Notes under the pieces: generated by a model
Told to the model about the DNA's origin: nothing
The model's database searches: none
What the model saw: the letters and a program-made list of their open reading frames with translations, nothing else
Translations under genes and position numbers: made by a program
Assembly (NCBI GenBank): GCA_002269645.1
Contig: NIVC01000291.1
Span: 696,229-760,228 of the forward strand
DNA: 64,000 bases
Direction: 5' to 3'
Origin: Macrostomum lignano
Lineage: Eukaryota
Shown here: positions 2,330-64,000 of the stretch, piece by piece
Numbering within the stretch: the first letter of the stretch is position 1
Layout of the letters: each line of letters starts with the position of its first letter

Positions 2330-9328
<6,999 letters not shown>

Positions 9329-18707: not shown

Positions 18708-19069
18708 TCAATTGCGGGGTGGACACTGTAGATGTTAACTGCTGAGGGGATATCCGAACTAATGATTCTATAAAATCAAAATCAGCTGATATTCTGGTTG
18801 AAGACAAATTTAGAAACAGACTAGCACCGAAGTACAAAGTCGCTCTGTGGTTTGGCTCAAACTTTATCTAACTTGCAAAACTCGAACAGCCTATTCGTAA
18901 TCAGAGATTTGTACCGCCTGTGCACTCAAAACACCGATATATAAAGCGGAATTCAGAGCACGAATTCCACATAACCCAGAAACCTGGTTTAGGCACAAGT
19001 GAAACATTTGAATAATTTTGAGCAGACTACATTTCATGTACTTAATATAGATAAGGTCAGTGACTTTCA

Positions 19070-40767: not shown

Positions 40768-42511
40768 TCAGTTAGCCGAGTGCCACTCAAAGAAGCACGG
40801 CTCAAGGCAAAGCCCAGGCTGACCGTCACAACCTTGGCAGAAGTAGACGGTCCGCTTTTTCAGTCTGCGCTGCAGGTAACAAACTCGGCAACGCTTGGTA
40901 GGCCGTTCTTGTGCTACGGTAGCGGGTAGCTTTTCCAGCCGGTGATGGATGTCTCTGGACTTAACCTGGATGGACTTAACTCTGGATCGACCATTTTCAC
41001 TGCTTTCAATCAAGTGCCTTACACACCTTTCAGTGTAGTTGAGAAAGCTCATGGATCCACCTAGATGCCGGTACACAATCCAGGAGTTGCGAACCAGTTG
41101 CTGTAGCAGAAACACCGCTAGCTTTACGAACTATTTGTGCGTTCGGCGACATGCGCTGTAAGGCTGGGCTGCGGCATCCATCCGATCCACACCTCCCATG
41201 TTCTGATTATATTGCAACATCGAGTTGGGCTTCAGCAGCTGTTGCTCCACACCACCGCGCAGTACCCGGCTAACCAAAGAGCTAGCAGCTGTTGAAGCGG
41301 AGTCCAACAGATAGACAGTCTTTGTTCCTGAGCTTTGCCTGTCAACCAGCTTCACAGCGAGGATGTCACCATGTCGGGCAAAGGAATGACTCGGTGGTTG
41401 CAAGAGCATATCTCGCAGAATCGGTGGAACGCCTCGGTCTTTGCGAACGGTCCCAGTTAAGGTTGTTCCTCGGGTCAGAAGGAACTTGGCCAGTCTCACT
41501 GATGAAAACCAACTGTCGCAAAAGACCCGATATCCAAAGTTCAATAGATAGACAAAGTTCTACGACGACTCTCTCACTGATTGAGAGCTGCGGCACATCG
41601 TTGCCGAACTGTTCATTTGCAATGGTGGTTGAATGTATCCGACAGTTCCACATGTAGCCTGTAGAAGACTCTGTAAGGCAGTACAACTTGATGCCAAACT
41701 TGGCTCTCTTGTTGGGCATGTACTGCTTAAAAATCAGCCTCCCTTTATAGAGCAGCAGCGCTTCATCAACGGCAATGCTTTGACCGGGCAGGTAGCTGTT
41801 CTTGCAAACAGTCTGGACCATGTCTAGGAAAGGCCTGATCTTGCACAAGGGATCATCAGCGTCGAAGTCAAGACATTCATCGCAACGCAGCCATGTCATG
41901 ATTTGTTGAAACCGCGAGCGAGGAAGCATCTTCATGCTTTGAAAGTAGGGATGAAAGTAGAACGGGTCCGTGGACCAGTAAGCCGTCACCTCCGGTTTCT
42001 GTACAACTCCGGTATATAATATAACGCCGATCACCTTCTTCATCTCAGAAACAGTGCAGGGCTTCCACGTTCTGAGCCCGTAAGGCAGTTCATCATCTCC
42101 GTGTTCTTCTTGAAACTTGGCAATATCCAGCTGCGCTCTCTTGTTTGTCCACATGCACATCTGAAGCAGCAACTCATCGGGTAGAAACTGCTCGAAAATG
42201 GCTGTCCAGCCGTCGTCAACATCAGCAGGTACGGAGAATCCCGGATTGACTCCGTTTGCCCCGAGGAACTCGGGAAGAGAATTAGCTCGAGCATCGGTCT
42301 CTGGAGTTACTGATCTCCAATCATCGTGCATCATTCCCTGATCGTCTTCCTCCGGTCCATCGTTGCCTTCTTGATTTTCGCCACCGTCCTCTCCCTCGCT
42401 CTCAGCAGTGACAAATGAGTCATCGCTCGACTCATCGCTCGATTCGCTGTCGAGGCCCAAGTTTTGCAAGGCTTGCTTGGCTGCTTGCCGTCGCTGTCTG
42501 ACCGCTTGCAT
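40768..42511 (-). pseudogene. piggyBac transposase (PGBD4-like), with one frameshift near 41550 and one W-to-TAG nonsense at 41131
   Basis: Acidic N-terminus, catalytic AVDEA / FCDSWF / GGVD, KRAKFGIK, and a C-terminal Cys-rich domain CRVC...C.GC...GLCLEPCF. Confidence 0.92.
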
Positions 42512-43081
42512 TGTTGATTTGGTAAGCTGGGGTGGTGAGCTAAGGAGGCACCAGTAAAAATTCTTGAAGTTAACTTTTCGCGCCTGTATTTGCTCTCTCT
42601 TGACTTTTTTCTAGCTTGGCCATAGACTATACTCCAGTCAAAGATGTCACTTCTCCTGTTGAGAAAGCGTTTTCTTGCCTGTCCATAATAAAGCAACTGT
42701 TTTGGAATTCTAAGTGTACAGCGCAGATATAAATTGTCTATGGCATGTCCATATCATGCAAGATAGAAATGTGGGGAAGGAATTCTGTCGTAAACAAGTG
42801 GTTAAAAATTGCTTATTCTATTTTTACTTTTTAAGATGGGGTACGAGCTAAGGCAGCCATCTCTGCCATCGAATTACATCTCAACTCAGAGCTCTCAGTT
42901 CATTCAGCCAAATTGAATTCTGAATGAACACCTGTTTATATATAGCTTTTGCTCACGCATCCTCCCTAGACTTGAATTTTTGTCATCTATTGAAAACAAA
43001 CCCTATACCTAGCTACAAATCAGATCGAGAATCGCGAGAGCAGAGGGCTCATCTCTGTTGCTGCTTGCTAACCATGAAACT

Positions 43082-43777
43082 CAAGGACGACTTAAGTAGA
43101 AGGACGGGAAACCTCGTTTCTTAGAAAAGTTTTGAAGGCACTTTTTCCCGTAAAAATACACTACGGAGATAGGAAGTTTTCATTTTTTCAGCACAAAAAT
43201 TGTTATTGCGTTTGATAGGAGGCAGATCCAGTGTTCATCTTTTGATATGTTGTGCCTTTTTTATTGCTCTATCGATATTTATAAAGCTTTTCGTTCAGAA
43301 AATTAGGATTCTATGTTAATTTTTTATTCTACGTATATTTCCTGTATCTAAAAATCACAAAAATGCATGGCACAGCTCCAATCTTTGGTTTTATGAATCT
43401 AGTTTATCATCTGTTACAAATATTTGCTACACAGTCGGGTAAGAATGATAAAATAGACTCATGAAGCTAAAGAGCCGAGCCGTGGCATTCTAATGTATTT
43501 CAAGCACAAGACACGCGAAAATATACGTAGAATAAAAAATTAACATAGAATCCTAATTTTCTGAACGAAAAGCTTTATAAATATCGATAGAGCAATAAAA
43601 AAGGCACAACATATCAAAAGATGAACACTGGATCTGCCTCCTATCAAACGCAATAACAATTTTTGTGCTGAAAAAATGAAAACTTCCTATCTCCGTAGTG
43701 TATTTTTACGGGAAAAAGTGCCTTCAAAACTTTTCTAAGAAACGAGGTTTCCCGTCCTTCTACTTAAGTCGTCCTTG
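43082..43777. mobile_element. 696-bp MITE, about 255-bp TIRs, CAAGG...CCTTG termini, 8-bp TSD ATGAAACT (hAT or P superfamily)
   Basis: 43082-43340 is the reverse complement of 43519-43777, with no mismatch seen by eye. ATGAAACT occurs at 43074-43081 and 43778-43785. Confidence 0.93.
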
Positions 43778-45535: not shown

Positions 45536-47872
45536 ATGCCCCGACGCATTCTTCGCCTCACCGGCGTCGCTGCTATTCTCGTGAGTAATTCCTGAGCAGG
45601 CTTGCCGTAGCAATAAATCACAAATAACTCCATCCGAGATAGCAGATAGATACTCACTGAAGGTCACTCTGCCGTGTGACCAGCAGTTCCCATTAGTTTG
45701 ACCGCAACTATATGTCATGGACACTATCTAATCATTGTGAGTTCTCCCTCTCAGCCATCTCTTCCCCTTTTTTCCAAAAATTCTGTTGAGAAATTCATGT
45801 TTCTTTTTGGCCTCCAGCATCGTCATCTGGTCATCCTGGGCCGAGTAGAATTCACGCTAGAATAAGCTGCATCTGTCTTCTGAAGCAAGATCCAGCACGT
45901 CCAGTGGAACATACTCAGGCTTTTTTTAATTCGATTCCGTTGGTAATTTTGGCTGCTGCACCCCGCCGGCTCACAAATTTAGGCATGCAGCGCAATAATC
46001 GGATTCGAACTGCTGCTCTGGCAGCCAAGCAAGCCACGGCTTCAGAGTGGCAGCGCGAAGGTGGCCGATAATCAGGAGCCTCGGTATGGAGCGATACCGA
46101 AGATTCTTCACCAGACCTTCGAGACTCGGAAGGTGTTCAACGAGTACAGGAAGTACATTGAGCGCTGCCTCAAGCTGAACCCCGACTGGGAGTACTACCT
46201 GTGGACGGACGAGGACATTGTGGCTTTCATCAGCGACTATTACCCGTTCTTCATGCGAAAGTACCTTTCATTCCGGATGCACGTCCAGAGAGCAGACAGC
46301 ATCCGCTACATGGTTCTGCATCACTTCGGAGGTGGGTGAAGCATCCTGCTTTAGAATGCCTCGAACCTCCAATCACTATGAAAAAGTTCAATTTAGTTCA
46401 TCGATATGACATTGAATACATATAGAGGTCATTGTTTCAGGAATTGAGATCAGAATGGGTTGGTGCGAGCTAGAGCCACTGTTCTAAGAATCTGGAAGGG
46501 AGATCAGTATGGGTTGGTGCGAGCTAGAGCCACTGTTCTAAGAATCTGGAAGCGAGATTAGTATGGGTTGGTGCGAGCTAGAGCCACTGTTCTAAGAATC
46601 TGGAAGGGAGATCAGTATGGGTTGGTACGAGCTAGAGCCACTGTTCTAAGAATCTGGAAGGGAGATCAGTATGGGTTGGTGTGAGCTAGAGCCACTGTTC
46701 TAAGAATCTGGAAGGGAGATCAGTATGGGTTGGTGTGAGCTAGAGCCACTGTTCTAAGAATCTGGAAGCGAGATTAGTATGGGTTGGTGCGAGCTAGAGC
46801 CACTGTTCTAAGAATCTGGAAGGGAGATCAGTATGGGTTGGTACGAGCTAGAGCCACTGTTCTAAGAATCTGGAAGGGAGATCAGTATGGGTTGGTGTGA
46901 GCTAGAGCCACTGTTCTAAGAATCTGGAAGGGAGATTAGTATGGGTTGGTGCGAACTAGAGCCACTGTTCTAAGAATCTGGAAGGGATATCAGTATGGTC
47001 TCCCGACGATGAGAGTTAGGGACTCTTGCTCGTACTCTACGAACAATACGAGCTAGAGCCACTGTTCTAAGAATCTGGAAGGAGTTCGTTTCGCACAAAT
47101 GTACAGAAGTGTCCTTTCCAGGCATCTACATCGACATGGACGTCGAGTGCGTGAAGCCGTTCTTCCCGAGCCTTGAAAACCTCACGGCCTTCGTGGATCA
47201 GGAGGCCAAGGAGCACGCTGTGATTCTCTACGGCAAGGACTTCAGCGCCATGAACAGCGCCATGGGATCCGTGCCCGGACATCCGTTCTTCCTGCGTCTC
47301 GTGTTCGCCATGATGGAAGTGGACGACAGTCAACATCGGGGAGACGCTTTAGCGACCACCGGTCCCCGTTTGCTCACCAGCCAGCTGCAGAGCTGGTGGG
47401 CTGACAATGCCACTAATCGGCACCAGGTGACGCTGCTGGATCCGCAGGTGTTCAGCCCAATTATTGACGACGAGGCGCATGACTTCAAGACCATGTGCAG
47501 GCTGCTGCATGCTTGTAAGTGTTTTCGAAGTTTTAACTTTCTCTAGAATAAACAAGTGCAGTAGCCGTAAATGATAAATGGTTCGCTATTCAAAATATTT
47601 TAGCCACACCGAATCCAAAAGATGCAACTGCTCGGCGGGTTAAGGAGATGCAGTTGCAGCTGTGCAGGCGGTACGCGGAGCGCAACTGGAGTCGCGACCT
47701 GACGGGCCCGGAAACAGTGGGCCGCCACCTCTTCCTGCACCTCGGCTACAGGTGGAATAATTGGTTGAAGTGGAAACAAAAGCACCTTCACGCCTACTTC
47801 AGCTTTTTCGACATTCAAGACGTCGCTAAGAATGTGAATTTCTACACACAGAAAAGGAATTCTACGCTTTAA
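45536..47872 (+). CDS. GT32 glycosyltransferase paralog D. Exons 45536-45580, 45983-46331, 47122-47514, 47604-47872; 351 aa
   Basis: Anchor MPRRILRLTGVAAILACSAIIGFELLLW; IPKILHQTF, DSIRYMVLHHFGGIYIDMDVEC and FLHLGYRW. The spliced length of 1056 nt is in frame. Confidence 0.88.
46447..47080. repeat. 54-bp minisatellite, about 10 copies plus a partial one, in intron 2 of GT32-D
   Basis: Period 54 (46457, 46511...). Confidence 0.95.
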
Positions 47873-48038
47873 TAGGATTCTTTTTCTTTTAAAAAGTAAA
47901 TTTTGGCTAATAAAGACAGCTAGCTGGTACTTTCACTTTAAAAAAACTGGATGCTCATTTCTCTATATCGATCGAAGAAAGAGAATACATATTTTAGGTC
48001 GCGCATGAGATACGCAGTTTTGTGCGCTATTAATGACT

Positions 48039-48510
48039 AGTAGAAGGCATGAGGGGGCTTTTGGACAAAATTTTTCACGTCCTCCATAATCCCATTAAAT
48101 CCATCCATATTATCCCTGACAGAATCAGAAAAAAAGGGGGTCGCACTCGCTCCGAAAACGTCCTCCATAATCCACCTAAATCCATCCATATTATCCCCGA
48201 CAGAATCAGAAAAAAGGGGGTCGCACTCGCTCACAAAACATCCTCCATAATCCTATTAAATCCATCCATATTATCCCTGACAGAATCAGAGCATTATCCC
48301 TGACAGAATCAGAGCATAACAGTAGGACACCTGTTATGCTCACTGACACAGACATAATCCACTAACATCCACCCATAGCATCTTCGAAACAATCTGAAAA
48401 TAATCTGTATTCTTCTCCCCACATTCAATCCGCAACGTGCTACCACATCCCTAAAACTTTAAATCCCCTAACCCAGGGTCCTTACCCATTGAAAAAAAAT
48501 AAATAATTTT
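48039..48510. repeat. Left terminal inverted repeat containing three about 80-bp subterminal direct repeats
   Basis: TCCATAATCC..TAAATCCATCCATATTATCCC.GACAGAATCAGA repeats at about 48082, 48164 and 48243. The inner part pairs with the right TIR. The outer boundary is inferred. Confidence 0.75.
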
Positions 48511-48965
48511 ATTATTCATTAGTAAGAATTATATATTTATTAACGGTTGCACAGCTGATAGGATATGTATTAACTATTACAAGAGTATCAAAAATGGTAG
48601 AAAAAACAGACACTATGTAGGATCTGCGTTAGAATTCTTCAACAACATACAGAGCCAGCCTAGCGTTCCTTTGAGCCAGCAGCTAGATTCTCTAACGCGT
48701 TAGAATTTTCTATGTGAAAATTTGGTGTGCCCAAGCTTATCATGCGGGAAGCTTTTCACATAGAAAATTCTAACGGCGTTAGAATTTAAAACCCACCGAC
48801 TGAGTTGCACACAGTACTGAGAAAATTGCTACCCTCCTCTACTTAACCAATCGGCTGTCTCCAGTTGTTGAATCTTCTCTTTGAAATTCTAACGCGTTAG
48901 AAAAATTCTAAATGAACTGAATTTAAAAATTACACAACTTTCCACGCAGGATCACTGGCCAAAAT

Positions 48966-49442
48966 TTATTCTAGAAACTTCATCTTAGAGTTTAGTTCCC
49001 TAATTGGCATTGACACCTGTCTCAAGCCTGGGTAGGTAACAGACAGTTTGTACAGACGAATGTACAAATAGCCAGTTGATTCCTGGATGTTTACATTTTT
49101 ACACAAATGGGCGAACCGCACTTTAACATCTTGTCCAAAGTTCTCGGTGCGATAAGTTTTTAGCAGCCGCCCAACTTCGAGAATCCAATGTAGACCTCCA
49201 ATTTGAGTCTTCTTGTATTTTGCTAGAGCCGCCTTCACCCTAGTGATGATGTTCTGCTCGCCAGATGGAAGCTGGTGATCAACAGCGTCCATCAGCTGAT
49301 CAGCTAGTGTTACGCGGGATGCGTACAACTTCTCCCTGAATATCTGCAGATCCGCCATCTTCTTCTGCAGAGCCGCCGCCTTCTTCTCTTCGCTACTCAC
49401 ATTTTGCGCTTCATTCGCTGCGGCGATATCATCAGGGGCCAT
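48966..49442 (-). CDS. Polinton accessory ORF, possibly a DUF3102-like HTH protein (may extend to about 49720 through frameshifts)
   Basis: ILEVGRLLKTYR...FAHLCKNVNIQESTGYLYIRLY resembles the IxEIGxxL...SxRTAxxYM pattern. Pattern recognition only. Confidence 0.45.
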   Translation of the reverse strand: MAPDDIAAANEAQNVSSEEKKAAALQKKMADLQIFREKLYASRVTLADQLMDAVDHQLPSGEQNIITRVKAALAKYKKTQIGGLHWILEVGRLLKTYRTENFGQDVKVRFAHLCKNVNIQESTGYLYIRLYKLSVTYPGLRQVSMPIRELNSKMKFLE

Positions 49443-50433
49443 GGCGAAAAACTCGATTGGTAGGTCGCCAGTTTCTAGACCGAAAAAAGGTGGTTAGTTC
49501 CTCTCTTCTTCTTGCTTGTAGATGTGACGGAATATCCTGTAAAACTCTTTGTAGCATGGCACAAAGGCCTTGCTTATCTGTCAAATGAAGATTCCACTCG
49601 ACTTCCATTTTCTAAATTTTCTTGTCTTCTAATCTTCTAGTTTGGCGGACAATTTCTTAGATCACTTTCAGCGTGCTTAAGTTCCTGCAGTCGTCGTTTC
49701 TCAGTCGCAGTTGATGGCATATGCGGGGAGAATCAACCCGAGTGTTTCTGCATTTGCTTAAATACAGCTATACAGCTAGAAAATTCCAGAAAATTCTTAG
49801 ACTGTACAATCTTGGAGTCAAGCAGGGAAAAAATAATTGATATAGCTCAGTGAACGATAGAACATGAGGCGTGTGAATGTGAGGGTGAGCGATCGATTCC
49901 CTCCACCCGCTTGAAGTCCCCATACATTTCCTTGGTTGAATGGGTTTGTCAAAACGGAAAGGAAAGCACGCGTGGAACTTGTACATTCGCAAAATCGATT
50001 AGAGGGCTGCGCTCCCTCAGCAAATAGCAGTTACCCCACCCCCTTCTGCTTCTACTTTTCAAAATGCAGCTGTTGCGCTTGGTTAGGGCTGAGAATAACA
50101 GTTAACCCTTCCCGACTCAAGCGCCTCTCTCTACCCCGCCCCATATCTTCATACCGTAGAGACCAACTAGGCGGGCCACATTCCGAGGCCAAATCGGCGG
50201 GCCGAGGCCAACTCGGCGGGCCAACTGGCCTCGCAATTTGGCCAATAATCAATATCAATCAAGGAGGGAATCTCAACATACACAGTCCATGCATGCTAAT
50301 GGCGGCGAAGCGGTTGACTTTTTATTTTCTGCTCTTAGCTCTCTGGAGAATGAGAATCTCTCTTGTGCGCAACTCTTTAGGGAATAAAAAACTGTACTTA
50401 CTCAAATCCACACTTGCTCATGCCCTTCCCGAT

Positions 50434-50934
50434 TCAAGCGCCCCTTTCTACCCCCAGCTCTTTCAGCAGTCTTCCCAATTCATTGTTAGGAGCGCACAAA
50501 ATAAACTCTGCTCCCGTGCGTTCGCCCTCTCTCCCCGTGCACTCGCCCTCTCTCCCCAAACACCCGCCCTCGGCGTACACCCCCAACCCCAGTTTTGTCT
50601 TACTAAAAATAACAGCTTTAACTATCTTCCGAGCGATCGACTCACGAAATCCGCTTGAAATCCCCATATTGTCGAGTCTCCTGAGCATTTCTTTGTCCCA
50701 CCGATTCTTCTCCTCAGGAAAATCTCTATACTTGATGTCATGCCACATGCACACAGAGTCTAGCTCGTTCACAGGCTCATGCCCAGGATTTGGATTATCG
50801 TTTGTATCTAACTGAATTTCAAGTGGATTCAAAGGCCCGCAATATTTGTATCCGGGAATTGTCCAGCCTTTGTTTGGATGAGGAAGCTTTTGTATCAGTC
50901 CATGTGAATCTATTTTACCACCAGAGCGTTGCAT
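50434..50934 (-). CDS. Parvovirus-type phospholipase A2 domain protein (adintovirus PLA2X-like)
   Basis: PGYKYCGPLN (Ca-binding loop), PVNELDSVCMWHDIKY (catalytic HD), downstream WDKEM Asp, and C-terminal KTKLGLG. Confidence 0.88.
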   Translation of the reverse strand: MQRSGGKIDSHGLIQKLPHPNKGWTIPGYKYCGPLNPLEIQLDTNDNPNPGHEPVNELDSVCMWHDIKYRDFPEEKNRWDKEMLRRLDNMGISSGFRESIARKIVKAVIFSKTKLGLGVYAEGGCLGREGECTGREGERTGAEFILCAPNNELGRLLKELGVERGA

Positions 50935-50964
50935 TATTTTATTTAAAATTTTCTTTTTAAATAA

Positions 50965-52003
50965 ATGACAGATCAGAAACTTAAAAAACTCTACTACAGC
51001 GACAAAGGATTCTTTGTAGGCAAAAATGCCGTTAGTAAACTCATGGAGCTGAGTAAGGAGCCAAAAGCTACAGTAGAAAAATGGCTCTCTAAGCAGGCTG
51101 TCTTTCAAGTCTATTTCCCACCAGTAAAATTTGAAAGGCCCCATTTCAGTATTTATAAACCTAATGAAGCGCACCGAAGCAGATCTTTTGTTTCTCCCCA
51201 ACGACTCAGGCTACAAGTATGCTCTTACAATTATTGACATTGCTTCCAGATATAAGGAAGCTCGCCCACTCAAGACGAAGAAGTCAGAGGTTGTTGCCAG
51301 CGCACTGCAAGATATTTATAAAAACTCTCCGCTCACATACCCCCAAATCTTTATGACCGACCCGGGTAAGGAATTCATGGGTGTAGTGAAATCCCTTATG
51401 GAAAAGAAAAACACAGAGATTCGCTATGGCAGAACAAACTTGCACAGAGACCAGGCTTTTGTGGAAAGATTCAATCTAACTCTAGCCAAGAGACTATTCA
51501 CTAAGCAGACAGCGCAAGAACTCAAACTGAGTGCGGGGCAGTACTATACCAAGTGGACAGAAAGACTCCCCACTGTTATAGAGCAACTGAACAATGAAGT
51601 CACACGCATGACTGGATTGAAACCATCCCATGCAATTAAACAAGACACTGTCGAACTTAAGGCATCTCATAGAACAGACAACAACACGACAACCCCACAC
51701 AACACACACAACACAAAACACACCTCGAACTACCCTAAGCTTCCAGGAGTTGAATCACCATACATACTGACAAACTCTGAGTTTCTACGCTTTTTATATC
51801 TACCTGGAGAGCTAGAGAAAGACACCAAAAGAAGAGCTACAGATCCATACTTCAGCCTTGATGTGCATAAAATAGACAGACATTTTACCTCCGACTCCGG
51901 TGACTATTACTTTTTATCTCAAGCCTTTAACCCTAAATCCCCCACGCGGTCATTCACTAGAGCTGAACTCCTAGTGATACCAGCTGACACAGAAATTAAT
52001 TAA
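50965..52003 (+). CDS. Retroviral-like DDE integrase (one frameshift near 51172)
   Basis: ADLLF (D), YALTIIDIASRY, TDPGKEF (D), AFVERFNLTL (E), and C-terminal RATDPYFS...SFTRAELL. Confidence 0.92.
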
Positions 52004-52019
52004 AATATTAAAATAAAAA

Positions 52020-52465
52020 ATGACAAAGATTGAAACCAGAACCATCAATAAACTCAATAAAATCATTGAATCAAAGAAACCAGGTATTATATCAATTAAA
52101 GGTGCCAAAGTAAAAATCGATCCCACGCAGCAAATAGTTCAGTGTAATGAGCAAAGACACAGCATCACAGATGAAAAGTCAGGAGGAATCCTACCATTAG
52201 CAGCTCTTATCCGATCATTGCAGGCGCTGTAAGTGCCGCAGGTGGTGTAGCTGGAGGTGTAGCAACTGCTGTTAAAGCTGGTAATGATAGAGCCCACCAG
52301 CTTGAATTGCAAAAGATTGCAAGAGACAAAGGTATAACAATTAAGGCAGGAGAGGGCTGCCCCGATCGTGATGATTGTGAGAATGAAAATTCTGTAAGCA
52401 AGTCTGACATTGTCAAAGCAATCATGACACTGCACAATGCTGGGTTTACAATAATGCGCATGTGA
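52020..52465 (+). CDS. Adenovirus pX/mu-like core protein precursor (one frameshift near 52210)
   Basis: Restoring one C gives KSGG-ILPLAALIPIIAGAVSAAGGVAGGVATAVKA, matching adenoviral pX RGG-FLPALIPIIAAAIGA. Confidence 0.72.
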
Positions 52466-52589
52466 TGAGGTTTAAAACCCCACTTTATCCAGCTTCATAA
52501 ACCTAACGCTACTGATAGGATGTAGAAACAGTTCAACTTTTCTATCAGGGTGGTCACCCTCAAAAATTTTTTTTTATTTTAGAGAAAAA

Positions 52590-55500
52590 ATGCCAAAAGC
52601 TAATCCAGCAAAAGATTTAGTCAACAAATATTTTTCATTTACCCTAACAAGGCGTCTCATTTCAAGAAAAAGTAATTTACTAAGAGAAGCATGTAAACAA
52701 AAGTTTAACACCGACCCTGGTCACCTGGGAAGCTATGAAAAACAGTTGGAAATCATCAAACAATTAGAATCCAACCAGTATGCGCCTATACAAAATCCTG
52801 CAAAGGAACACCAAGAGAGGAGTCGCAACTTAGTTAACAAATACGAAACTCTCACTGGTGAAAAAGCAAAGTACCCACAAAATAAGCAGGAACAAGAGAA
52901 ATTAGAGCAATTAATCCATTTAAAAGAGTCGGAGCTTGCCACTGAAGAGATTAATTTTGCACAGAGGAAGTTTACAGAACATTACATAGAGTACACAATC
53001 CCAATTAACGGCACCAACGGCACCACCGCAAACATCTACGACTATAAAGACAGCATCCAATCAGTTGTTGATCACACACTCAAAACACGCAAGACCTTTA
53101 AACTACAGATATCATTCAAGATTGCGTTTTATATGCCTGCAAAACCCACTGAGCATCTCGAGTATTACATGACAACAAAGGCAAAGCCATTCACCCCAAC
53201 AGACACACTGGATCCTTTCCTTCAAGATGTCACTAAGAAAATTGAAGCGTTTACATCCAGAGGTTCCGGATGGGTCGTGGGAGGGATTCAAAGAGCGACT
53301 GTCATGGTCATGAAATATGACCCACTTAAAGCCTCCTCTTATATAGAGCTCCCACACAAGCTAGCCGGCAAAAAAGCTTGCATAAATGTTAAAAATAAAG
53401 ACAATTGCTGTGCTCTATGGGCAGTTCTTTCTGCACTTCTTTATGATAGTGTCCCTCACCACCCCGAAAGAACCTCAAATTATCAAAATTATTTCAACTA
53501 CTATCTCATCGAATGCGAAAAGAAGGGAATCAGGTTTGACAAAGGAGGCTTGGCATCTCTCAGATCCCAAAGCTAGAAGAAGTGTTTAATAACAAAATTA
53601 GAATCACAGTCTTTGAGTGGAGTGAGAAAACTGAAAAGTTCAACCGGTCAGATGTAGCAAAGACGTTTTAGATCCTGAGGGAAAAGGCGGACTGAAGTGG
53701 ATCTTCTAGTGATTGGTAATTTACTAGAGGAGGCTCACTATGTTTGGATTAAAGATCTTTCAAGACTCATTCACAAGCAGTTGAATAATCATCACGAGGC
53801 TGTTGCCATCTGCCGCTTGTGCCTTAAGCATTACAGTGGACCTGAACGCTTTGAAAAGCTAACAGAGCATGAATTATCATGCGAGGATCACCCGACAAAC
53901 TGCTCTCTTCCTTCAGCTGAAGAGAAGTATCTCCGGTTTAAGAACTATCACAAGATGGAGAAGCTCCCATTTGTTGTATATGCTGATTTCGAATGCTCAA
54001 TCGTGCCAGAAACTCAAAAACAAACTCAAACTCAAAAACATATCCCCAATTCAGTAGCATATGCCTTTATTAATACAAAAGGACTTGTTGAGTATAATTA
54101 TTTCTTTGGAGAGCAGTGTGTGGAGCAGTTTATTGCCAGAATGTTAGAGTTGCAAAAAGTATTAGCACCCTTCAACCTGTTCCAATAATGATGACTGAGG
54201 AGGATGAAAGCAATTTCCTATCAGCAACTCATTGCCACATCTGCAGGAAACATTTAACTTGCACTAATATTAAAAACCCACCGTTAGGGACCACTGCCAC
54301 TATACTGGGAAATTTAGAGGTGCAGCGCATAACACCTGTAATCTAAAGCTAAAATCGAACATTCATGATCTAACATATTTTGTCACAACGCAAAGAACTA
54401 TGACATGCATTTAATAGTTGAAAAAATCGGCATGATTCCAGACATACACCTTGATTGCATCGCAGAGAACAAGGAGAAGTTTAAGTGTGTTGATATTAAA
54501 CAGGATAATTCGGGTACAGGTAAAATAAGACTGAAGGATTCATATCAATTTCTAGCTGCCAGTCTAGACGAACTAAGCAAGAATCTAAAAGATGAACAAT
54601 GTACATATACAAAGATGTTTGCAAGTAAAATTAACAACACTGATGAATCATTTAAACTTTTAAGAAAGAAAGGCTTCTACCCCTATGAAAATATTACTGG
54701 GTATCACGTATTTGAAGAAGGTTTACCACCACAGGAGAAGTTCTTTTCAAAGCTAACAGACTCTGGAATCTCTGACAAAGACTATGAGCACGCGAAGCAT
54801 GTCTATAATTACTTTAATTGTCAAAACTTCTTCCAGTATCACCTGCTTTACCTCTACACAGATGTGTTTCTGCTGGCCGATGTGTTTGAAACCTTCAGAT
54901 ACACCTGGTACACAGCATATGGCCTCGATCCAGCACATTATGTGTCTCTGCCTGCCACTAGCTGGGAATCTTTGCTTAAAATGAAATGGGATCAAGATCC
55001 AGATTGGTACATTGAACTTCTTACAGACATTGACATGTACAATTTTGTCGAATCGTCAAAGCGAGGGGGAATCTCAATTTGCGTTAACAGGTATGCAAAA
55101 GCAAACAATCCCTACATTGAATCTTACAATAAGGAGCAGCCCTCAAACTACATTACTTACTTGGACGCTAATAATCTCTACGGGTGGGCGATGAGTCAAG
55201 ATCTTCCAGTTAGAGATTTTCGATGGCTACCCTCATCAGAACTAAAGTGGGACTTTTCATTGGCTGCCATTTATGAGTTGATGTTTACATTCCACCAGAG
55301 CTTCACGACTATTTCTCTGACTTTCCACCCTTCCCAGAGAACATCAAGTGCCCGAAAATAATCGAAACTCCCAATGATAATAATGGAACTTGGCACCTGT
55401 CAGGAACAGAAAAAGAACATACAGAGAAACTAACACAGAATCTAAACAACAAGACACGTTACAAAATCCATTACAAACTGCTTCAGTATTTTATCTCACT

Positions 55501-56415
55501 TGGTTGCAGGGTCACCAAAGTTCACAGGGCTCTTACATTTACAGAGGAAGCGTGGATGAAACCCTACATTGATAAGAACACCCAGTTTAGGACCAAAGCA
55601 ACCAACGACTTTGACAAGAACCTCTTTAAGTTGCCAACAACTCTGTCTATGGCAAGACTCTTGAGAATGAGCGGAAAAGAACAAACCTGAAACTTGTTAC
55701 CTCATCAGAGCCTGCTGTTATTCAGGCAAATATGTCAAAGCCAACATTCAAAGAACTCCATATCTTTAATAGCTACTTAGGTGTGATCATATTTTACAAA
55801 ACCAAGGTGACGCTGCGCAAGCCGATCTATACAGGTGTCACTGTTCTCGACGAATCAAAACGTCTGATGTACCAGTTCTTCTATGGCATGAAGCAGCAGT
55901 ACAAGGATAAAATGAAACTCTTGTACACTGACACAGACAGTTTTATTATGGACATTCAAACAGAAGACATTTATCAGGACATGCTGCAGCAAAAAGATTT
56001 GTTTGACTTGTCTGAGTATGATGAATCTTGCAGGACACAGAATGGCGATCAAGTGTTTGACGCCACTAACAAGAAAGTGATTGGGAAAATGAAGGACGAG
56101 ATTGCTGGTGACATAATCACTGAATTCATTGGGTTGAGAGCAAAGTCCTATTTTGTAAAATGTGAGTCGTCAGACCCAATTAAAAAATCAAAGGGAATTC
56201 CGAAACGTGTGGTTAGGAAGGAAATTAATGAAGCTGAATACAGAGACGCCTTGAATTGCAACAAAAAGACATCACATGAGTTCTCAAAGCTACAATCTAA
56301 AAACCATATTATTCACACAATTCAGCAAAAGAAGATTGGACTGTCAGGTGCAGATAACAAGAGATTCATTTTTGATGACAATATCAACAGTCTACCGTTC
56401 GGGCATGGAGATTAG
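52590..56415 (+). CDS. polB: Protein-primed family B DNA polymerase (about ten frame breaks)
   Basis: GSGW N-terminal region; exonuclease motifs YADFE, HN..YD and Y...DV; CHIC...DHCH...AH..CN insert; polymerase motifs YLDANNLYGWAM, K..NSVYGK (frameshifted), YTDTDS, GKMKDE, RAKSY, KGI and DNKR. Confidence 0.95.
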
Positions 56416-56488
56416 GTTTAGGAGGTTGGGTTTAGGAGGTGGAGGTTGGGTTTAGGTTTAAGAGAAAGTTTAATAAACCTCATAAAAA

Positions 56489-56951
56489 ATGACACAAATA
56501 ACTTTCTTGAAGATTTGGCTAACGAACTGGAAATCCCAAACTTTAGAGGAATATTTATGAGGGACACTCTGCCTGATTTTCCTCTAAGAAAGGAATGCGG
56601 CATCATGAACTTTGACACCACCGATAAGCCAGGATCTCATTGGGTTTGCTGGGTGATTGATCCCGATCGCAAGCACAAGTGTTATTACTTCGATAGCTAT
56701 GGGACGGCAGTACCAGAAGAGCTAAGAAATTATATGAAGGGAAAAAAAATAAAAAAATTTATCGCTCAGACTTTATTCTCCAAGGTCTTAGCAGTGATAT
56801 TTGCGGTGAGCTGTGCATGACTGTTTTGTATGCAATGACCAAAACACGAAAGACCTACAAGGAAATTATTCTTGCTGTGTTTCATAGGGTTCATTGTGCA
56901 TTTCTCGTCGTCCTTCTTACCGAATTTCTCGTTGTCCTTCTTTCCGCATAA
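56489..56951 (+). CDS. Adenain-like cysteine maturation protease (frameshifts near both ends)
   Basis: FRGIFMRD, GSHWV (His), YFDSYG (Asp), and Q.LSSDICG (Gln/Cys) in a shifted frame. The 3' end is uncertain. Confidence 0.88.
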
Positions 56952-57556
56952 TGTTGAAAAACTTTCTCGAGTTCATTTTCAGCTGACTCATGTCATCAGT
57001 ACCGACCATGTTCAAGTTCATTCGAATTGATTGTTCATAAAGATCCTGAATGGTTTTGAACTCATCCTCTGAAATGAACTTATCCTCGATTGCCCTTGAA
57101 ATGTACCCTATGATTGATGTGTGCACCCCTTTCTCTTTTACTTGCTTCTCCTGTAGCTGCTTTAGTTTTTTTCGCCTGTTTCGCGCTAATGCTCCAGTAA
57201 TTGCTGAAATAAGTCCACATGCAGCACCCACAGAGCCGAGCGGGATTGCGATTGGGGCTGTGATGACTGGCAACACTGAGACAGCTGCAGCAGATCCAGA
57301 TAGAACAGACACAGATCCTAGAATCATATTGCTGTAGTCGAAAAATTTACAGTGGTTGTCATAGCGCTTAATTTTCTTTGTGTTGTGGAAAATATTTTTT
57401 TCAAGATCATCTCGCATTTTTTGAATCTCCACCAGTCGAAACTGTTGAGAGTTACAAGTAATGACGGGTAGAGTTTTTGTGCTCATATTGGGGTGCACTA
57501 GGTGCTGTGGGTGTTGTGGGAGCGTTCGGATCATAAAGAGAATTTTGAGCATCCAT
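56917..57556 (-). CDS. Conserved Polinton two-helix transmembrane / coiled-coil protein
   Basis: N-terminal PTAPSAP (shifted frame), QQFRL, hydrophobic ILGSVSVLSGSAAAVSVLPVITAPIAIPLGSVGAACGLISAITGAL, and ISRAIED.FISEDEF. Confidence 0.7.
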
Positions 57557-57869
57557 TTTTAGAGAATTTTTAAAAAAAATCGGCAACTAGTTGGTGGTGG
57601 TTAGATTTGTTTTACGTTTGATTGTTTCGTCTGCAGTTGGCGCCAGCAGGTCTCTTCGAATCTACCTATTTATTTGTCTATGCGCTCCATTCTACACTTG
57701 ATCTCAAACAAACCGGTTGGCTCACGAAATTTGTGTCAGTCAAGTCGTTGGATCACTTATTTCCCTTGTGGTCTGTGGTGCCTCTTCAGCAGTATCAATT
57801 TTGAAGATTGTGTACTCCTCAAGACGACTGATTCTTCTCACGATTTCTGCCATTCGGTAAAAATTAAAT

Positions 57870-58422
57870 CTAAAAGACTTTAATTGCATAATCTTTCTTT
57901 ATTCTATCATGCAACGATGTTGACTGAGTCATGAACTCTTCTAAATTCCTCACTTTACCTGTGTTGGTTGCGACGTTTTCTTTAATTCTATCATGCAACA
58001 CTGTTGACTGGTTCATGAACTCTTCTAAATTATTTACTTTAGCTGTTTGTGAAAACTCCTTCTTCAAGAATACGCATCCGTCTATCAGTGGAATTTCTCA
58101 GAAGATTAATTGTCGATGTTAACCCATTGATTTGCGAGACTGTCGAAGTTTATTTCTGACCTAAGTTCATTAGTTGCGTGTACAACCTGTACATAAAGCT
58201 TATCACTTTCAAACTTCTGCCTGGCTACTTTTATGCGGAGATCTTCTATGTTTATCTGTAGCTGGTGCATGGAGCGCTCTAATTGTTTCAGTCTGTTTTT
58301 ATTCAGTTTGATCTCTGGGATCTCTTCGTCGCTGTGATATATCGCCTGTCAAGGATGGATATCTGAGCTGATGTAAGAGCGCTGTTGCCAGAAATGGATT
58401 CACCTGCAAAGTTTATTGACAT
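57870..58422 (-). pseudogene. Frameshifted coiled-coil ORF with an internal repeat (possible fiber-like virion protein)
   Basis: Starts MSINFAG. Heptad-like segments and duplicated KV.NLEEFM.QST.LHDRIK. Boundaries are uncertain. Confidence 0.45.
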
Positions 58423-58438
58423 CTTTTAATAGCAAATT

Positions 58439-59238
58439 TTAAATTACAGTTCTTTTTTCTTTGCTGATAATCACAAACTGGTAAGGCTGATTCCACTTGT
58501 CATAGCAAAGATTAACGAATTCCTCTTGTGAAATCTTTCTGCTTGAGTTTTTTGTTGGATTTATGAAATAGGCAGGCGCAATGACCTCATTGTAAAATCT
58601 TTTTAACCTGTCCTGTGGAATGGTTGGAAACAGGAGAATCAGATTGCAGTTCCCACGAATTGTTTTGTTCGGGAGCTCGAACCAGTTCTGTGCAATGTAA
58701 ATTACATTACAATTGTTATGTCGTCCTCTTGTAAAATAGTTTTCTATCTGCTTCTGTGGGCCTGTCATACAATCATCAAAGACGATCAAATGCTTTCTCC
58801 CCTTTTCTAGCTCATCTGGTTGGGGTAGAAGTTTGGTCTTTGGATCAGCCTGTGGATCTCCATAGGTGAACACTTTAATGTTCTGCCATTTTTCATTGTC
58901 TTTGAGGTGCTTTGATATTCAGCAGCTACAATTTCTGGGTTACTGGGAAGGCTCATTTGGTTATTAAAACATGCAATAATGTCCTCTTTGTTCAGCTTGT
59001 TTTGAAGCCCTGCAATCAGCATTCTATACTCATCTTGATACAGTGTGGGAGAGTAGATGTGCAGAGTGTCATAGTCGATAAAGCCAGGTCTAAGAAGCAT
59101 GTTAAAGACTCTGAATGTTTTACCTGAACCTGACGAACCAACAACAATGCATCTGAAGTGACTCGGGATTGACTCATGATGAGAAAACTTAATCTGATTA
59201 CGCGTCCAGTGAGGATTGAAGTCGTTTGAAAAGTCCAT
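58439..59238 (-). CDS. A32/FtsK-like genome packaging ATPase (one frameshift near 58878)
   Basis: Walker A GSSGSGKT, Walker B LIVFDD, RGRH motif, VIYIAQ and TIRGN. Confidence 0.93.
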
Positions 59239-59277
59239 TTTTTCTATGATGAAAAAATTTAAATAATAAATAATTTA

Positions 59278-59548
59278 GATGTGTCATTTCGGGACTTAGA
59301 TGTGTCATTTTGGGACTTAGATGTGTCATTTTGGGACTTAGATGTGTCATTTTGGGACTTAGATGTGTCATTTTGGGACTTAGATGTGTCATTTTGGTAC
59401 TTAATTGTGTCATTTTGGGACTTAGATGTGTCATTTTGGGACTTAGATGTGTCATTTTGGTACTTAATTGTGTCATTTTGGGACTTAGATGTGTCATTTT
59501 GGGACTTAAATGTGTCATTTTGGGACTTAGATGTGTCATTTGGGACTA
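59278..59548. repeat. 21-bp tandem array (ATGTGTCATTTTGGGACTTAG), about 13 copies, inside the Polinton
   Basis: Direct observation, between the core-protein stop and the ATPase start. Confidence 0.95.
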
Positions 59549-59588
59549 CTTGTACCTTTACATTTCTTGTACCCTCGGAAAGTACCCT

Positions 59589-59976
59589 TTAGTCAAATTT
59601 GAAACCACTTCCTTTTTTAATGCTAGCTCTCATCTTCTCATAGACTGCAGGGTCCACACTGTCTGGGTTTGGGCCAGCGGGGCCAGCGGGCCAGTGGAGG
59701 TTGAATCTCTTGTTTAGGTGTTACAGTATCCTTTATCTTTTTGGCTGCTGTGACTACACTGCCAGCCGCTTCGGCAACGTTCTTGATGTTCTCTTTGTTC
59801 TCTCCAATGACCTTAAAAATCTTAGCCCCCTGAGCGATCAAATCAGCAAGGCCATTCCCAGAGCGTTCTTTTCTTGGATAGTGGCCTGCAGGGAAAAGTC
59901 CAGATCCGCGTTTAATGAGATTAAGTTCCTCTTTGTCATAGTATTTGTCAATGTCTTTTTCGAAAATAATCGGCAT
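59589..59976 (-). CDS. Small putative virion core protein with repeated GxG motifs (frameshifted near 59680-59695)
   Basis: KRGSGL, RSGNGLADLIAQGAKIF (amphipathic), and the corrected C-terminus ...YEKMRASIKKGSGFKFD*. Confidence 0.6.
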
Positions 59977-59989
59977 TTTTACTTGAAAT

Positions 59990-61144
59990 AAATTATTTTT
60001 GTTGAACCGCGAAAGCAGAAGCTCTCTCGCCCTCTTATCGATGTATTTTCTCTCAAGCATTTTGTCCAGGATGTTGACAAATTCTTTTCTATTCTCGTCT
60101 TTCATTCCGGTCTTTGCCGCTCCTAGAAGAACAGCTAACCGCTTGTAGAATTCAGGCATGCCTTTTCCGGAAGAGCTTGGAGGTGATTCGAATGATTGGT
60201 CAGAGAGGAACTGTCATGTGGCGCTTGTCTTTGTTGAGGTGTGAATACTCTGTCATTGATTCGCTTCATTCGTTCTGGGGAGAGCCGCTCTAATTGTCGC
60301 CAAGTATCAGGGTTTGTATCTTTGTACTGCGAAACAACAATCGGTTCTGCGGCGTCAAGTTGATCAAGTACTTGTTCAACCTGGGTTTTTTGTTGCTGTG
60401 GAGGTGGTGTTGCTGTGGTTGTTGCTGTTGTTGTGGTTGCTTGTTGTTGTTGTTCTAGAAATTTATGACTTCCAACTGATCTGGCAAACCAAACCATTGT
60501 TTAAAGTATTTGTATTTTCTAAACCTGTTCAAGTCAATCCTGTTTTCATGTAAAACTTTGAAAACACCGTTCTTCTTGAGAATGTCTATGTCCCTCTCTA
60601 AAGCAAAGGTAACAAGATCTTTGTAATTTTTTAGCTGCTTTTCAGACGTTTTCTCTAGATTTTTAGTCATGTAATCAAGTAAAGTTTTAGTGTAGGGGAT
60701 TCTTTTAGTTTCTGCACCTTTATTGATTGAAATATTTTCCTTTGTCACTTCAATGTTGTAATCCACCGGTTCCTTGGTAATTTCTTTTCGCCAGGCGCTA
60801 ATTCCAAAAATATATTTTCCATCAACCATTACGGGGCCAAAAAAGTTATCCGTCACATTCATCTGCACTGGTTGTCCTGGTTGCTGAGCCTGTGGTTGTT
60901 CCGGTGAAGATGGGATTTTACCCAATGTGTTTTGCAACTGGCTCTCTTGAATATCATCAATTGTTTCCTTCACAGTGTCGATGTTTTTCTTCGCTTCTGT
61001 GTATCCGGGTTTGTGAAATTCGGTGGCTGCTTGGACGAATTCATTGTAAGATTGTTGTTCTTTGTTGATTAGTCCGGTAACTCGTTTCTCTGCTTGCGCC
61101 AGCTTTTCTAGTTCAGAGATATGATATGAACTTTTCTGCTTCAT
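59990..61144 (-). CDS. Polinton conserved hypothetical protein (frameshifted)
   Basis: ORF pieces 60455-61144, 60135-60497 and 59990-60159 chain together. The C-terminus RLAVLLGAAKTG...EFVNILDKMLERKYI is typical of a conserved Polinton ORF. Confidence 0.55.
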
Positions 61145-61174
61145 TTCTTATTTTATTTTATTTTTAGTTAAAAA

Positions 61175-62461
61175 ATGAACGACCCACTGACACCAGTTTT
61201 CTACAAAATTAACAAGCCTATTTTGAGTGATGATAGCACAATCAAAGCGACTCAGGTAAGAGTTCCGAGTCACGAAGAACCAGAATGAAACTAATCTTGG
61301 TCCTGGTCAAACACTGACATTTACATACAATGGATGTTCGTCTTTGGTTAGTGTGCACAGTCTTAAGAGCGGCTTCCATATGACATTTCAATTCAAGACA
61401 AAGGGTGGTGCGGATGCGGCTCGTGCTAACGTTGACAAGCATGATGCAGATGTGGCTCTGATCAGTAACTTTTGGGCGTACATGTTCAAGGAGTTTAGTG
61501 TATCGAATGGGAGCACTGAGTTGGAGCGAATCGCCAACTTTGGAATTGTCTATGACGCTCATTGTTTGATCGAGAATCCTGATTTTATTCAGTTGGGAAG
61601 TGGTGCGGGTTTTATTGCAGACGAAAAAAAGGAGATATCAATGACATTGGTTATAAAAATAGGAAGAAGAGATACAACTATGCATTGCAAGGTGCAGATG
61701 ATGCTGCTAAGAACCCGCAGTATCGGTCTGTTGATGTATTTGTACCATTGAGATTCATGAGTGGATTCTGTAATACATTTAATCGACTGACTAGTAACTT
61801 TAGCTACACTTTTAGAATGACTAGAGATGATCGCAGTAGAGTGTTGTGGACTGGGGCGGATCACACAAGGATGGAGGTGAAGCTAACCGGAATTGAGCTG
61901 TATTTGGAAGTCATTGAGCCAAAGACCGCACTAAAAGCGGATTATCTCAAGGCAATAGAGAAGGACATTGATGTTGCATACACAGCCTACATGTGTCGAG
62001 ATGAGCGAAACGAAACTAGAACAAACATCTGCATTAAAGAGGGATCATGCAGCAATCCAAGGTATATCATTATTAATATGAGAAACCCAAATAGCATTAT
62101 ACGCTACATGCATGGAGACGTGCGGTCCATTCAGCATGAAATCAGTGATAATCTTTACCCTGCACTGCCACAAAATGGAGATTTCAGTCAGAACAAGATT
62201 AGCAAATTTTACAGCGAGTTGGTCGACTTGGCTGTGAAAGAGAACAATGGAATTGCTATCACTGCTCTTCAATATGGAACTCTATATCCAATGTTTGGCG
62301 CTGATGTGTCTGCCAGACAAATTCCTACTGATAACAGCCCTGTGAATATCTTGACTAACATTGAGAGGACTGTCGCAACACCCGTGGACCTGTACATTAT
62401 CTATGCATTTGAGAGGAAGGTGAAGCTTAACATGATCAACAATTCATCCAGTAAAGTTTAA
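61175..62461 (+). CDS. Double jelly-roll major capsid protein (hexon-like; two frameshifts)
   Basis: DDSTIK N-terminal motif, NFWAYMFKEFSV...ELERIANFG, FVPLRFMSGFC, PRYIII, YPMFGADVS and a YIIYAFERKV C-terminus. Position next to the penton gene is as expected. Confidence 0.85.
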
Positions 62462-62482
62462 ATATTTTTTGTGGGTGAAAAA

Positions 62483-63340
62483 ATGGAAGCGATTGCTGAA
62501 AGACTAAATAATATTATTTCGCACTCCAAGGAGAGCATTCCTATTACAATAACTGGGCGAATTAATGACTCAAACGGATATTTATTCAAAATTAGAGCAG
62601 GCGATTAGCCTGGATCCAGGTGCTAATTACCATGTCTATCTTAACGACTTCACTGGTTGGTCAAACGTTCCCAATGTGTCGGCAGCAAATAATAAGTTTT
62701 ATTACAAATGGAAAGGTGCAGCAGCAGAACCTGTGGTATTCCCTGTGAGCACGCAAAGCGTGGATACCTACAATTACTTTCTAGAAAACGTTTTACTAAA
62801 AGAGGCCATTTTGAGACACCTGATGCGAGTAAGCCAGAGAAGAAACTGTTCCCTGTCAAACTAATCCTATGATCTCACTGTAATGAGAGTGGTCATGCAA
62901 GTTCACAAAAATGCGGAGGTTGAGTTTAAAGATGACACTTGGTATAGGGAATTAGGATTCGAGAAGAAAGTTTATAAGGCAGAATCCGCGGCGCGGACCG
63001 CCACTCAAGCGACGGGGCCGTTATCATGGCCCGGGAAAGTGTACGCGGTTTGTTCTTAGCACCCAATATAGCAGACATTGTAAAGGGTTTGAATATTCTA
63101 ATCAGAACTAATCTCAGTCTTGATTGGGTATTTAAGGAAAGCGAACTAATATTTGTACAACATCTCCAACTCTGTAGCTGGAGGACAGATGGTGGTAGAG
63201 AAACCAAATCCAGTGAAAAGAGTTGTATTGAGTAATAAGGAGATTCACGAGATTGTGCTACAGTTTGAGACTGAAGATGGGGTGGTGTTGATTTCAACGG
63301 TGAAGAGTTTGTATTGACGTTGATCATTGAGAGAATGTGA
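62483..63340 (+). CDS. Minor capsid (penton-like) protein (several frameshifts)
   Basis: VYLNDFTGWSNVPNVSAANNKFYY, WYRELGF, ILIRTNL, and corrected C-terminus EKPNPVKRV.L...EIVLQFETEDG..DFNGEEFVLTLIIE. Confidence 0.8.
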
Positions 63341-63904
63341 GAAAATGCGTTCCTTTTAAGTATGCTTGCAGAGAATAGAGTGGTATGAAAAATGCGCGCA
63401 TGTGTACTCAATCTCTTACCCCATTCTGACAGTTTGTGGGCGCGGGCATCGGGTGCGCGGGAGAGGGGAGTGTATGTGTGTGGGCGCAGCGCGCGTGGGG
63501 CAGAGAGATTTTCACTTTAACTGAGCCCAGCCGAGGAAGAATTCCGTCTCGAGGAAGGCCAGAATGCAAAGGATTTCGGCCTCGCGCGAAGGCCAAAATG
63601 AAAAGGGTTTTGGCCTTTGGCCTTTTTGGCCTTTTGGCCTTTTGGCCTTTCGGTTTTTTAACGCAATTGCTTAATGATTTCTGCAAAGTTATAGTCGCTG
63701 TCGTAATCTTTTACATAGGTACTCCATACTTATGAAACCAGTGTCTTTGGAGAGCTAGATTAATATTAGGGACATTGATATCAACGTCGGGCCAATATTT
63801 TCTCATGTACTCGCTGCATTCAAGTTTGCATCGGTACTTGGATTTTGTAATTGGGCTCGTGCGCCTTTGTAATAAGAACCTGGAGAGACAACTGGAAACA
63901 TTTT

Positions 63905-64000
63905 TATTGAGAAAATTTAATTTTTTTCAAAGGGTAAGGACCCTGCGCTGATGATTTAAAGTTTAGGGATGTGGTAGCACGTTGCGGATTGAATGTGGGG
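63905..64000. repeat. Inner portion of the right terminal inverted repeat
   Basis: The reverse complement CCCCACATTCAATCCGCAACGTGCTACCACATCCCTAAA matches 48417 onward, then diverges gradually. Confidence 0.92.

Follow-up and report, generated by a model that had tools for sequence, protein, structure and literature searches.

An integrated capsid-encoding Polinton with frameshifted core genes in Macrostomum lignano

Introduction

Polintons, or Mavericks, are the elements described as adintoviruses and are placed in the family Eupolintoviridae (PMC12567637). One survey of 960 genomes reports 20,702 pPolB1 homologues that are linked to an integrase; it also records flatworm Polintons in bulk, with 748 copies of pPolB1 spread over 8 of the 73 genomes (PMC10748475). 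Flatworm elements also appear in 10.1101/2025.04.19.649669, and PMC11131425 and 10.64898/2026.10.13.758929 add to the literature for comparison. Here we describe an element that is almost certainly an integrated, capsid-encoding Polinton, at positions 48039–64000 of a 64,000-nt stretch of Macrostomum lignano DNA (assembly GCA_002269645.1, contig NIVC01000291.1, positions 696,229 to 760,228 of the forward strand; hereafter the window, whose numbering is used throughout). We found no description of a Macrostomum Polinton in the literature that we searched. The element is a further member of a well-known and very abundant class. Because capsid-encoding Polintons rank with the most frequent of all endogenous DNA viruses in animals, a single additional copy is of little weight.

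Whether animal Polintons make particles is an open question in the field. Support for particle formation is indirect; PMC8502044 mentions, as unpublished work, that adintovirus DNA from insect cells co-purified with virus-like particles. The frameshifted copy described here gives no answer to this question. It has some value in its divergent capsid clade, which has unbroken relatives, and in its uncoupled PLA2 and pX-like genes. It also serves as a warning that lists of gene content overstate intactness, as a complete gene set here hides frequent frameshifts.

Core genes of the element

Consistent with a Polinton, the element shares with described members pPolB, an rve integrase, an adenain-like protease, an FtsK/A32-like ATPase and a double-jelly-roll capsid protein, which cover the defining polymerase, integrase, capsid, protease and ATPase; a penton protein is probable, and terminal inverted repeats (TIRs; Table 1) are visible in their inner part. 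These genes lie in a gene-dense block with a GC content of 0.41, against 0.50 in the flanks. An earlier sequence-only reading of the window had proposed a capsid-encoding Polinton, and the Pfam gene set, the catalytic motifs and the relatives and fold of the capsid protein bear this out. Its gene list stands for the integrase, pPolB, protease, ATPase, major capsid protein (MCP) and PLA2; the minor capsid gene has no named family, and the pX-like label is tentative. What sets this copy apart is that its core genes are all broken as written and that its capsid is divergent.

We scanned 120 stop-to-stop frames of at least 50 codons each against Pfam; matches other than those reported here scored low and look incidental. 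All of the catalytic motifs that we looked for in the window translations are present in the core genes. The integrase scored 29.9 bits with PF00665, under the curated cut-off of 32.6, and has its D, D and E motifs in one frame; a frameshift near position 51150 parts the open DDE core from the N-terminal section, which holds the start in another frame. The protease is broken near its start, where the first frame closes after 23 codons, and again between the His/Asp and Cys motifs. In the ATPase, a break near 58900 leaves Walker A out of frame with Walker B; an arginine-finger motif is present.

The pPolB gene retains the Exo I–III motifs and motifs A, B and C. A search limited to proteins of 579–2000 amino acids (aa) gave 6647 candidates, of which 5349 are relatives at E≤1e-10; the best 120 are 36–50% identical, and the best relatives of each catalytic piece reach 44–51%. 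Named proteins make up 29 of these 120, and all are from animals (wasps, 16; moths and butterflies, 7; cnidarians, 4; molluscs, 2). No match was found among phage records. The gene also carries an endonuclease VII (HNH) insertion, matching PF02945 at 54283–54354, and a vOTU-like Cys at 53400 and His at 53736; loose patterns for the latter two match 83 and 98 of the best 120 relatives, respectively, and there is no Pfam OTU match. The two motifs are candidates for the OTU-like domain that Polinton pPolB proteins carry at the N terminus.

Table 1 Features of the element and of the adjoining host sequence, in window positions; a dot marks features given without a strand.
Feature	Position	Strand	Evidence or remark
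Host glycosyltransferase-family paralogue, last coding stretch	47648..47872	+	Paralogues; Pfam on sister exons
Candidate 6-bp target-site duplication, left copy (ATGACT)	48033..48038	+	Directly before AGTAG at 48039
Left TIR	48039..48504	+	About 465 nt, given the left end at 48039; outer part implied
Palindromic/inverted short-repeat cluster	48688..48916	.	Just inside left TIR
Accessory open reading frame, 158 aa, unbroken	48966..49442	-	Coding-like in 3-periodic model
Parvovirus-type PLA2, about 166 aa from likely start, apparently unbroken	50434..50934	-	PF08398, E 3e-13
rve integrase	50965..52003	+	PF00665, E 7e-7; PHROG transposase
Small basic/Gly-Ala-rich gene	52020..52465	+	One break near 52210; motif halves in different frames
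pPolB with exonuclease and polymerase motifs	52590..56415	+	PF03175, E 8.5e-12 (45 bits)
Adenain-like maturation protease	56489..56951	+	Weak PF00770 (E 0.0045)/PF02902
Conserved hypothetical gene, about 210 aa, hydrophobic middle	56917..57556	-	One break near start
Coiled-coil-like gene	57870..58422	-	Internal 84-nt duplication; apparently at least three pieces
A32/FtsK-like packaging ATPase	58439..59238	-	PF04665 Pox_A32, E 0.0024
Tandem array, 13 x 21 nt	59275..59547	.	TRF; between ATPase start and upstream gene
Small basic gene	59589..59976	-	Translations and start context; one apparent break near 59690
Gene of about 380 codons in three pieces	59980..61144	-	Coding-model frame switches; translations
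MCP, double jelly roll, full length	61175..62461	+	Relatives; profile; fold of a relative
Probable minor capsid (penton) gene	62483..63340	+	Size; position directly after MCP; relatives
Right TIR, inner part	63915..64000	-	Cut at window edge

A divergent capsid clade

The MCP piece in the window matches PF21738 weakly (E 2e-4), and its relatives match the same family above the cut-off. Among 275 candidates, the C-terminal piece of MCP has 7 relatives at 63–70% identity, which are unnamed and lie on contigs of 0.9–3.7 kb. Searching 1.84 billion representatives with a profile returned 274 proteins, with a sharp drop in score after the MCP clade, from 872 to 412 bits, followed by about 160 bits for other full-length proteins. 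In a quick, midpoint-rooted tree of 53 rows (the window piece, six of the seven relatives, P0128 and 45 representatives of 380–520 aa, with no named references among them), the window piece and the six relatives formed a clade with a support of 100 on a branch of 0.71. Beyond this clade, MCP is 14–31% identical to the sampled representatives, with two nearer rows at 43–45%. Judged from these sequences, the capsid and its few unnamed relatives form a clade that stands well apart, and an undescribed lineage is plausible as far as the capsid is concerned.

The capsid fold was taken from a model of a relative, P0121, rather than of the window protein itself; P0121 is 70–86% identical to the window pieces, and its model, built on a 103-row alignment, has a pLDDT of 93.5 (an earlier model from an 8-row alignment, with a pLDDT of 32.5, was not used). 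This model matches the capsid proteins of Sputnik (3j26; E 1.5e-18, TM 0.63) and mavirus (6g44; TM 0.65), with TM values of 0.5–0.65 across Sputnik, mavirus and PBCV-1 and VIA Z values of 20–25 to the capsids of PBCV-1, faustovirus, Sputnik and mavirus. In BFVD, the matches are virophage, MELD-virus and adomavirus capsids at 9–14% identity; no close adintovirus capsid was found there, the best named adintovirus row being 11% identical.

Polintons encode a single-jelly-roll minor capsid protein, the penton. The gene that directly follows MCP is probably the penton gene, as its size and position suggest. It has 11 relatives among 31 candidates (171–332 aa, 52–68% identity), and the Atlas model of a relative matches unnamed viral clusters at TM 0.78–0.79; no named penton family was matched in Pfam, in PHROG or in a sequence search of solved structures. 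Such sequence searches of solved structures likewise gave no match for the capsid piece, the capsid profile or PLA2. The close relatives of both MCP and the penton-like protein are unbroken, full-length proteins.

Ends and insertion site

With AGTAG at 48039 as the left end, the element would extend to 64378 and measure 16,340 nt, of which 97.7% is within the window. The implied 16.3 kb and the implied TIR of about 465 nt are within the ranges reported for Polintons, 13–25 kb and 100–1500 nt (PMC10748475). The nearly complete genome ending at about 64.38 kb that the sequence-only reading proposed is thus present to about 98%, its right end being implied: the window stops approximately 378 nt short of that end, with the outer right TIR arm and the right junction beyond 64000. 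The TIRs it reported are visible as their inner 87 nt, as 48417–48504 pairs with the reverse complement of 63915–64000 (91% identity over 88 columns, E 2e-28; the first 39 nt are identical), and the outer part is implied. The left TIR holds three internal repeats of about 80 nt (48049–48289) and a 23-nt duplication. Polintons make target-site duplications of 5–8 bp, and a 6-bp candidate, ATGACT, stands directly before the AGTAG. The exact left end at 48039 is likely rather than proven, because AGTAG is frequent (43 and 53 occurrences across the window) and because the interval from the stop codon of the host gene to the first unit of the terminal repeats contains one other candidate terminus, AGAGA at 47980. 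The rest of the window holds neither another copy nor a fragment of the element.

The element starts approximately 165 nt past the stop codon of a host glycosyltransferase-family gene and about 125 nt downstream of a host AATAAA at 47909, so the insertion probably leaves the host coding sequence uncut. The last coding stretch of this gene is 95–96% identical to paralogues at 13042–13142 and 19178–19278, which stop shortly afterwards, and its sister exons match Pfam PF04488/PF04572. The alignment of the host paralogues does not cross the junction.

Frameshifts in the core genes

We aligned the element, allowing for frameshifts, to profiles of 6 of 7 capsid, 9 of 11 penton-like and 50 of 120 pPolB relatives. 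MCP, the penton-like gene and pPolB together contain 16 frameshifts in 5.3 kb, or one break per 333 nt, 14 of which were modelled as single-base events, and no aligned in-frame stop. MCP has two (near 61270 and 61630), with all 428 profile columns covered and no codon inserted or deleted. The penton-like gene has seven (near 62580, 62790, 62860, 62980, 63130, 63150 and 63280), and pPolB, over its alignable part at 53223–56406, has at least seven (near 53550, 53670, 54150, 54280, 54370, 55280 and 55630). These counts held over three penalty settings, except that the penton-like gene had eight under one of them.

All six core genes are frameshifted, which the earlier reading did not report and which departs from the uninterrupted core reading frames by which PMC8097293 recognizes an intact Maverick. 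By our reading, 11 of the 13 predicted genes are broken, five of them accessory genes whose breaks are predicted, and only PLA2 and the 158-aa frame look whole. Because of the frameshifts in all six core genes, and barring sequencing errors as their source, the copy as written would be dead, unable to produce either its polymerase or its capsid. The earlier suggestion that the element could encode particles is therefore unsupported for the copy as written, in which MCP, the penton-like gene and pPolB carry the frameshifts listed above and the motifs of the protease and the ATPase are split between frames.

Assembly error or decay

We lean, by a modest degree of belief, towards a young Polinton that probably inserted recently past the 3′ end of the host glycosyltransferase gene and in which most breaks are local errors of the assembly consensus. 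Such errors might arise, for example, from few reads spanning a polymorphic insertion, or from reads of other copies piling up on it. Consensus error appears most likely because the breaks lie close together, involve one base in nearly every case and come without stops, large deletions or lost catalytic residues. As 4.7% of random point changes create a stop, neutral decay at an assumed ratio of 3–8 substitutions per indel would be expected to leave 2.3–6 stops, and the probability of seeing none would be 0.10–0.002 (0.22 at a ratio of 2). Furthermore, the 21-nt array has 11 inner units in which every variant is shared and none is private. The identity of the first 39 nt of the visible TIR pair and the unbroken state of the close relatives of MCP and the penton-like protein also speak for this reading.

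Several observations weigh against consensus error. Over 3365 nt of host tandem repeats, in nine arrays, just 2 spacings are off-period, where 10 would be expected; an 881-nt host duplicate shows no gaps compared with 5.3 expected; and two long host frames, one of 1.4 kb and one of 3.1 kb, are open. These three results reject a uniform error rate across the window, so any consensus error must be local to the element. The breaks are also weakly tied to homopolymers, with 6 of 16 near runs of at least four against a background of 19% (P 0.07) and 3 of 16 at runs of at least five (P 0.03); a strict origin by homopolymer slippage is unsupported. One stop, at 53676, lies inside a poorly aligned insert of pPolB. 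Of the columns that are otherwise invariant, 16 of 234 in MCP and 5 of 73 in the penton-like protein are changed in the window copy, 6.8% in both, which is level with or slightly above the upper limit among the relatives (2.8–6.9% and 0–5.6%, respectively). Its end branch is the longest in three of five pieces (0.31 against 0.09–0.22 in the longest piece), for which a more distant lineage would be another explanation. In the 21-nt array, private changes amount to 5 of 273 nt, compared with 0–0.4% in host arrays, and all five fall in the two edge units. Finally, the inner margin of the TIRs is only 91% identical.

The strongest alternative, to which we give credence somewhat short of even, is real decay, in which the frameshifts are mutations since insertion under an indel-rich host spectrum and the copy is an early fossil like most vertebrate Mavericks. 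The limitation of the indel excess to the element, the slightly raised substitution load with longer end branches and the weak homopolymer link all fit decay, as does a vertebrate survey in which degraded copies are the great majority (PMC8097293). Decay has to account for 16 frameshifts without an aligned stop, an MCP gene with neither a large deletion nor an inserted element, the retention of all catalytic residues and the unmutated inner array units.

It is very improbable that polymerase and capsid modules from different elements were joined here, whether by chimeric or collapsed assembly or by natural recombination: the capsid and penton-like relatives are closer (63–70% and 52–68%) than the best pPolB relatives (only 44–51% per catalytic piece) and module exchange is documented in the Polinton/adintovirus group (PMC8502044; PMC10748475), but each core gene is present once, packing is tight, the TIRs match and bracket the genes, the GC content is uniform at about 0.41, and close polymerase fragments could not appear because the pPolB search took proteins of 579–2000 aa only and the capsid relatives lie on contigs of no more than 3.7 kb.

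Beyond a young copy with consensus errors, one may imagine that the copy belongs to an undescribed, narrow and still-active lineage marked by the long-branched capsid clade, by separate PLA2 and pX genes and maybe by promoters in 30-nt spacers and host splice acceptors. We hold this to be doubtful. If it were true, and with a host that is a laboratory-tractable invertebrate, the formation of Polinton virions could be watched directly in an animal.

Relation to adintoviruses and virophages

PLA2 is characteristic of the virion modules of Alpha adintoviruses (the Mayetiola class) and is also found here; the host groups of the named pPolB relatives, among the best 120, are prominent on the Alpha adintovirus map list (PMC8502044). 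By these two features the element tentatively leans toward the Alpha adintoviruses. Its PF03175 match is weak, at 45 bits, although Alpha is presented as the archetypal PF03175 type (PMC8502044). Unlike the Alpha PLA2X fusion described in the same source, the PLA2 and pX-like genes here are separate, lie on opposite strands and flank the integrase. This split is unremarkable alone, because stand-alone PLA2 genes are reported in related insect elements (PMC11296320). The calcium-loop and His-Asp motifs of PLA2 share one frame, and no pX-like tail was seen in it. For the gasdermin and cupiennin of Beta adintoviruses there was no Pfam match in the 120 frames, in which several genes are fragmented and unassigned; PMC8502044 used HHpred for these families.

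The nuclease insertion in pPolB is a feature also reported for nematode and oomycete pPolB2 Polintons (PMC10748475). Because an HNH-like motif is common to 95 of the best 120 pPolB relatives, it appears from these sequences to be the mark of a widespread pPolB type whose named members are from insects, cnidarians and molluscs. The virophages Sputnik and mavirus and the Polinton-like viruses have a similar capsid fold at a sequence identity of only 8–12%; unlike them, the element has an animal-type pPolB and an rve integrase rather than a helicase and a tyrosine recombinase.

Proposed life cycle

The window establishes the gene set, its order, the motifs and, through a relative, the capsid fold; the functional steps that follow are those of the family. 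By analogy, the rve integrase would insert the linear genome through its TIR ends and, after release, pPolB would copy it from the ends by protein priming. In the family, a vOTU domain has been proposed to free the terminal protein (PMC11161782). The ATPase would pack the genome into a shell that is built from the double-jelly-roll capsid and penton proteins, and the adenain-like protease would mature the particle. On entry, PLA2 may aid membrane crossing, by analogy with parvoviruses (PMC8502044).

Accessory genes and neighbouring host sequence

Several accessory genes accompany the core set. The 158-aa frame has no Pfam match above the cut-off and none in PHROG. The small basic/Gly-Ala-rich gene, for which no Pfam or PHROG name was found, may resemble adenoviral pX, and its pX-like label is tentative. 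The gene of about 210 aa has Atlas feature scores of 0.94–0.95 to unnamed eukaryote and virus clusters, with a recognition value of 2112 below the benchmark of 2300, making this a weak likeness. The small basic gene, without a family match in Pfam or PHROG, is possibly a core protein. The gene of about 380 codons has no family match above the cut-off in Pfam or PHROG, and its C terminus may resemble Polinton PZ. The repeat cluster inside the left TIR is a possible replication or regulatory signal. Rfam gave no match in 47000–64000.

Over approximately 1 kb of the element, at 49450–50430, coding signal is absent in every frame, pointing to a non-coding or heavily broken accessory region. A short tandem run of TTTTGGCC occupies 63608–63659, just inside the right end, and has no left-end counterpart. 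Two head-to-head gene pairs, PLA2/integrase and PZ-like/MCP, are separated by AT-rich spacers of exactly 30 nt between start codons (50935–50964 and 61145–61174), which are 72% alike over 36 nt and perhaps represent a shared bidirectional promoter or initiator. T-tracts followed by TAG, resembling splice acceptors, occur on the forward strand at 52582 and 61167, just upstream of the start codons of pPolB and MCP. They are two of the 13 sites of this kind in the element (naive P 0.002, a post hoc value confounded by the AT-rich spacers); our literature search on Polintons and trans-splicing found nothing relevant among the papers listed.

The remaining window is rich in satellites, and the flanks are eukaryotic DNA. 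The glycosyltransferase gene (PF04488/PF04572-like) is present as four paralogues, at 12839–14907, 18950–21325, 37345–39901 and 46028–47872, two of which are 95% identical, and satellite arrays lie in their introns. A piggyBac-like transposase on the reverse strand at 41369–42610 (PF13843, E 3e-43, profile positions 4–201 of 349) is apparently truncated or frameshifted. A related sequence of about 250 nt at 1638–1874 matches 43090–43338 and 43521–43769, in opposite orientations. Two open frames, at 32556–33296 (reverse strand, 246 codons) and 24551–25090 (forward strand, 179 codons), have no Pfam match and are possibly mobile-element fragments. A GC-rich NACHT/STAND NTPase gene at 2042–9076 on the forward strand includes a glutamine run of 75 CAA/CAG units within an open frame of 1034 codons.

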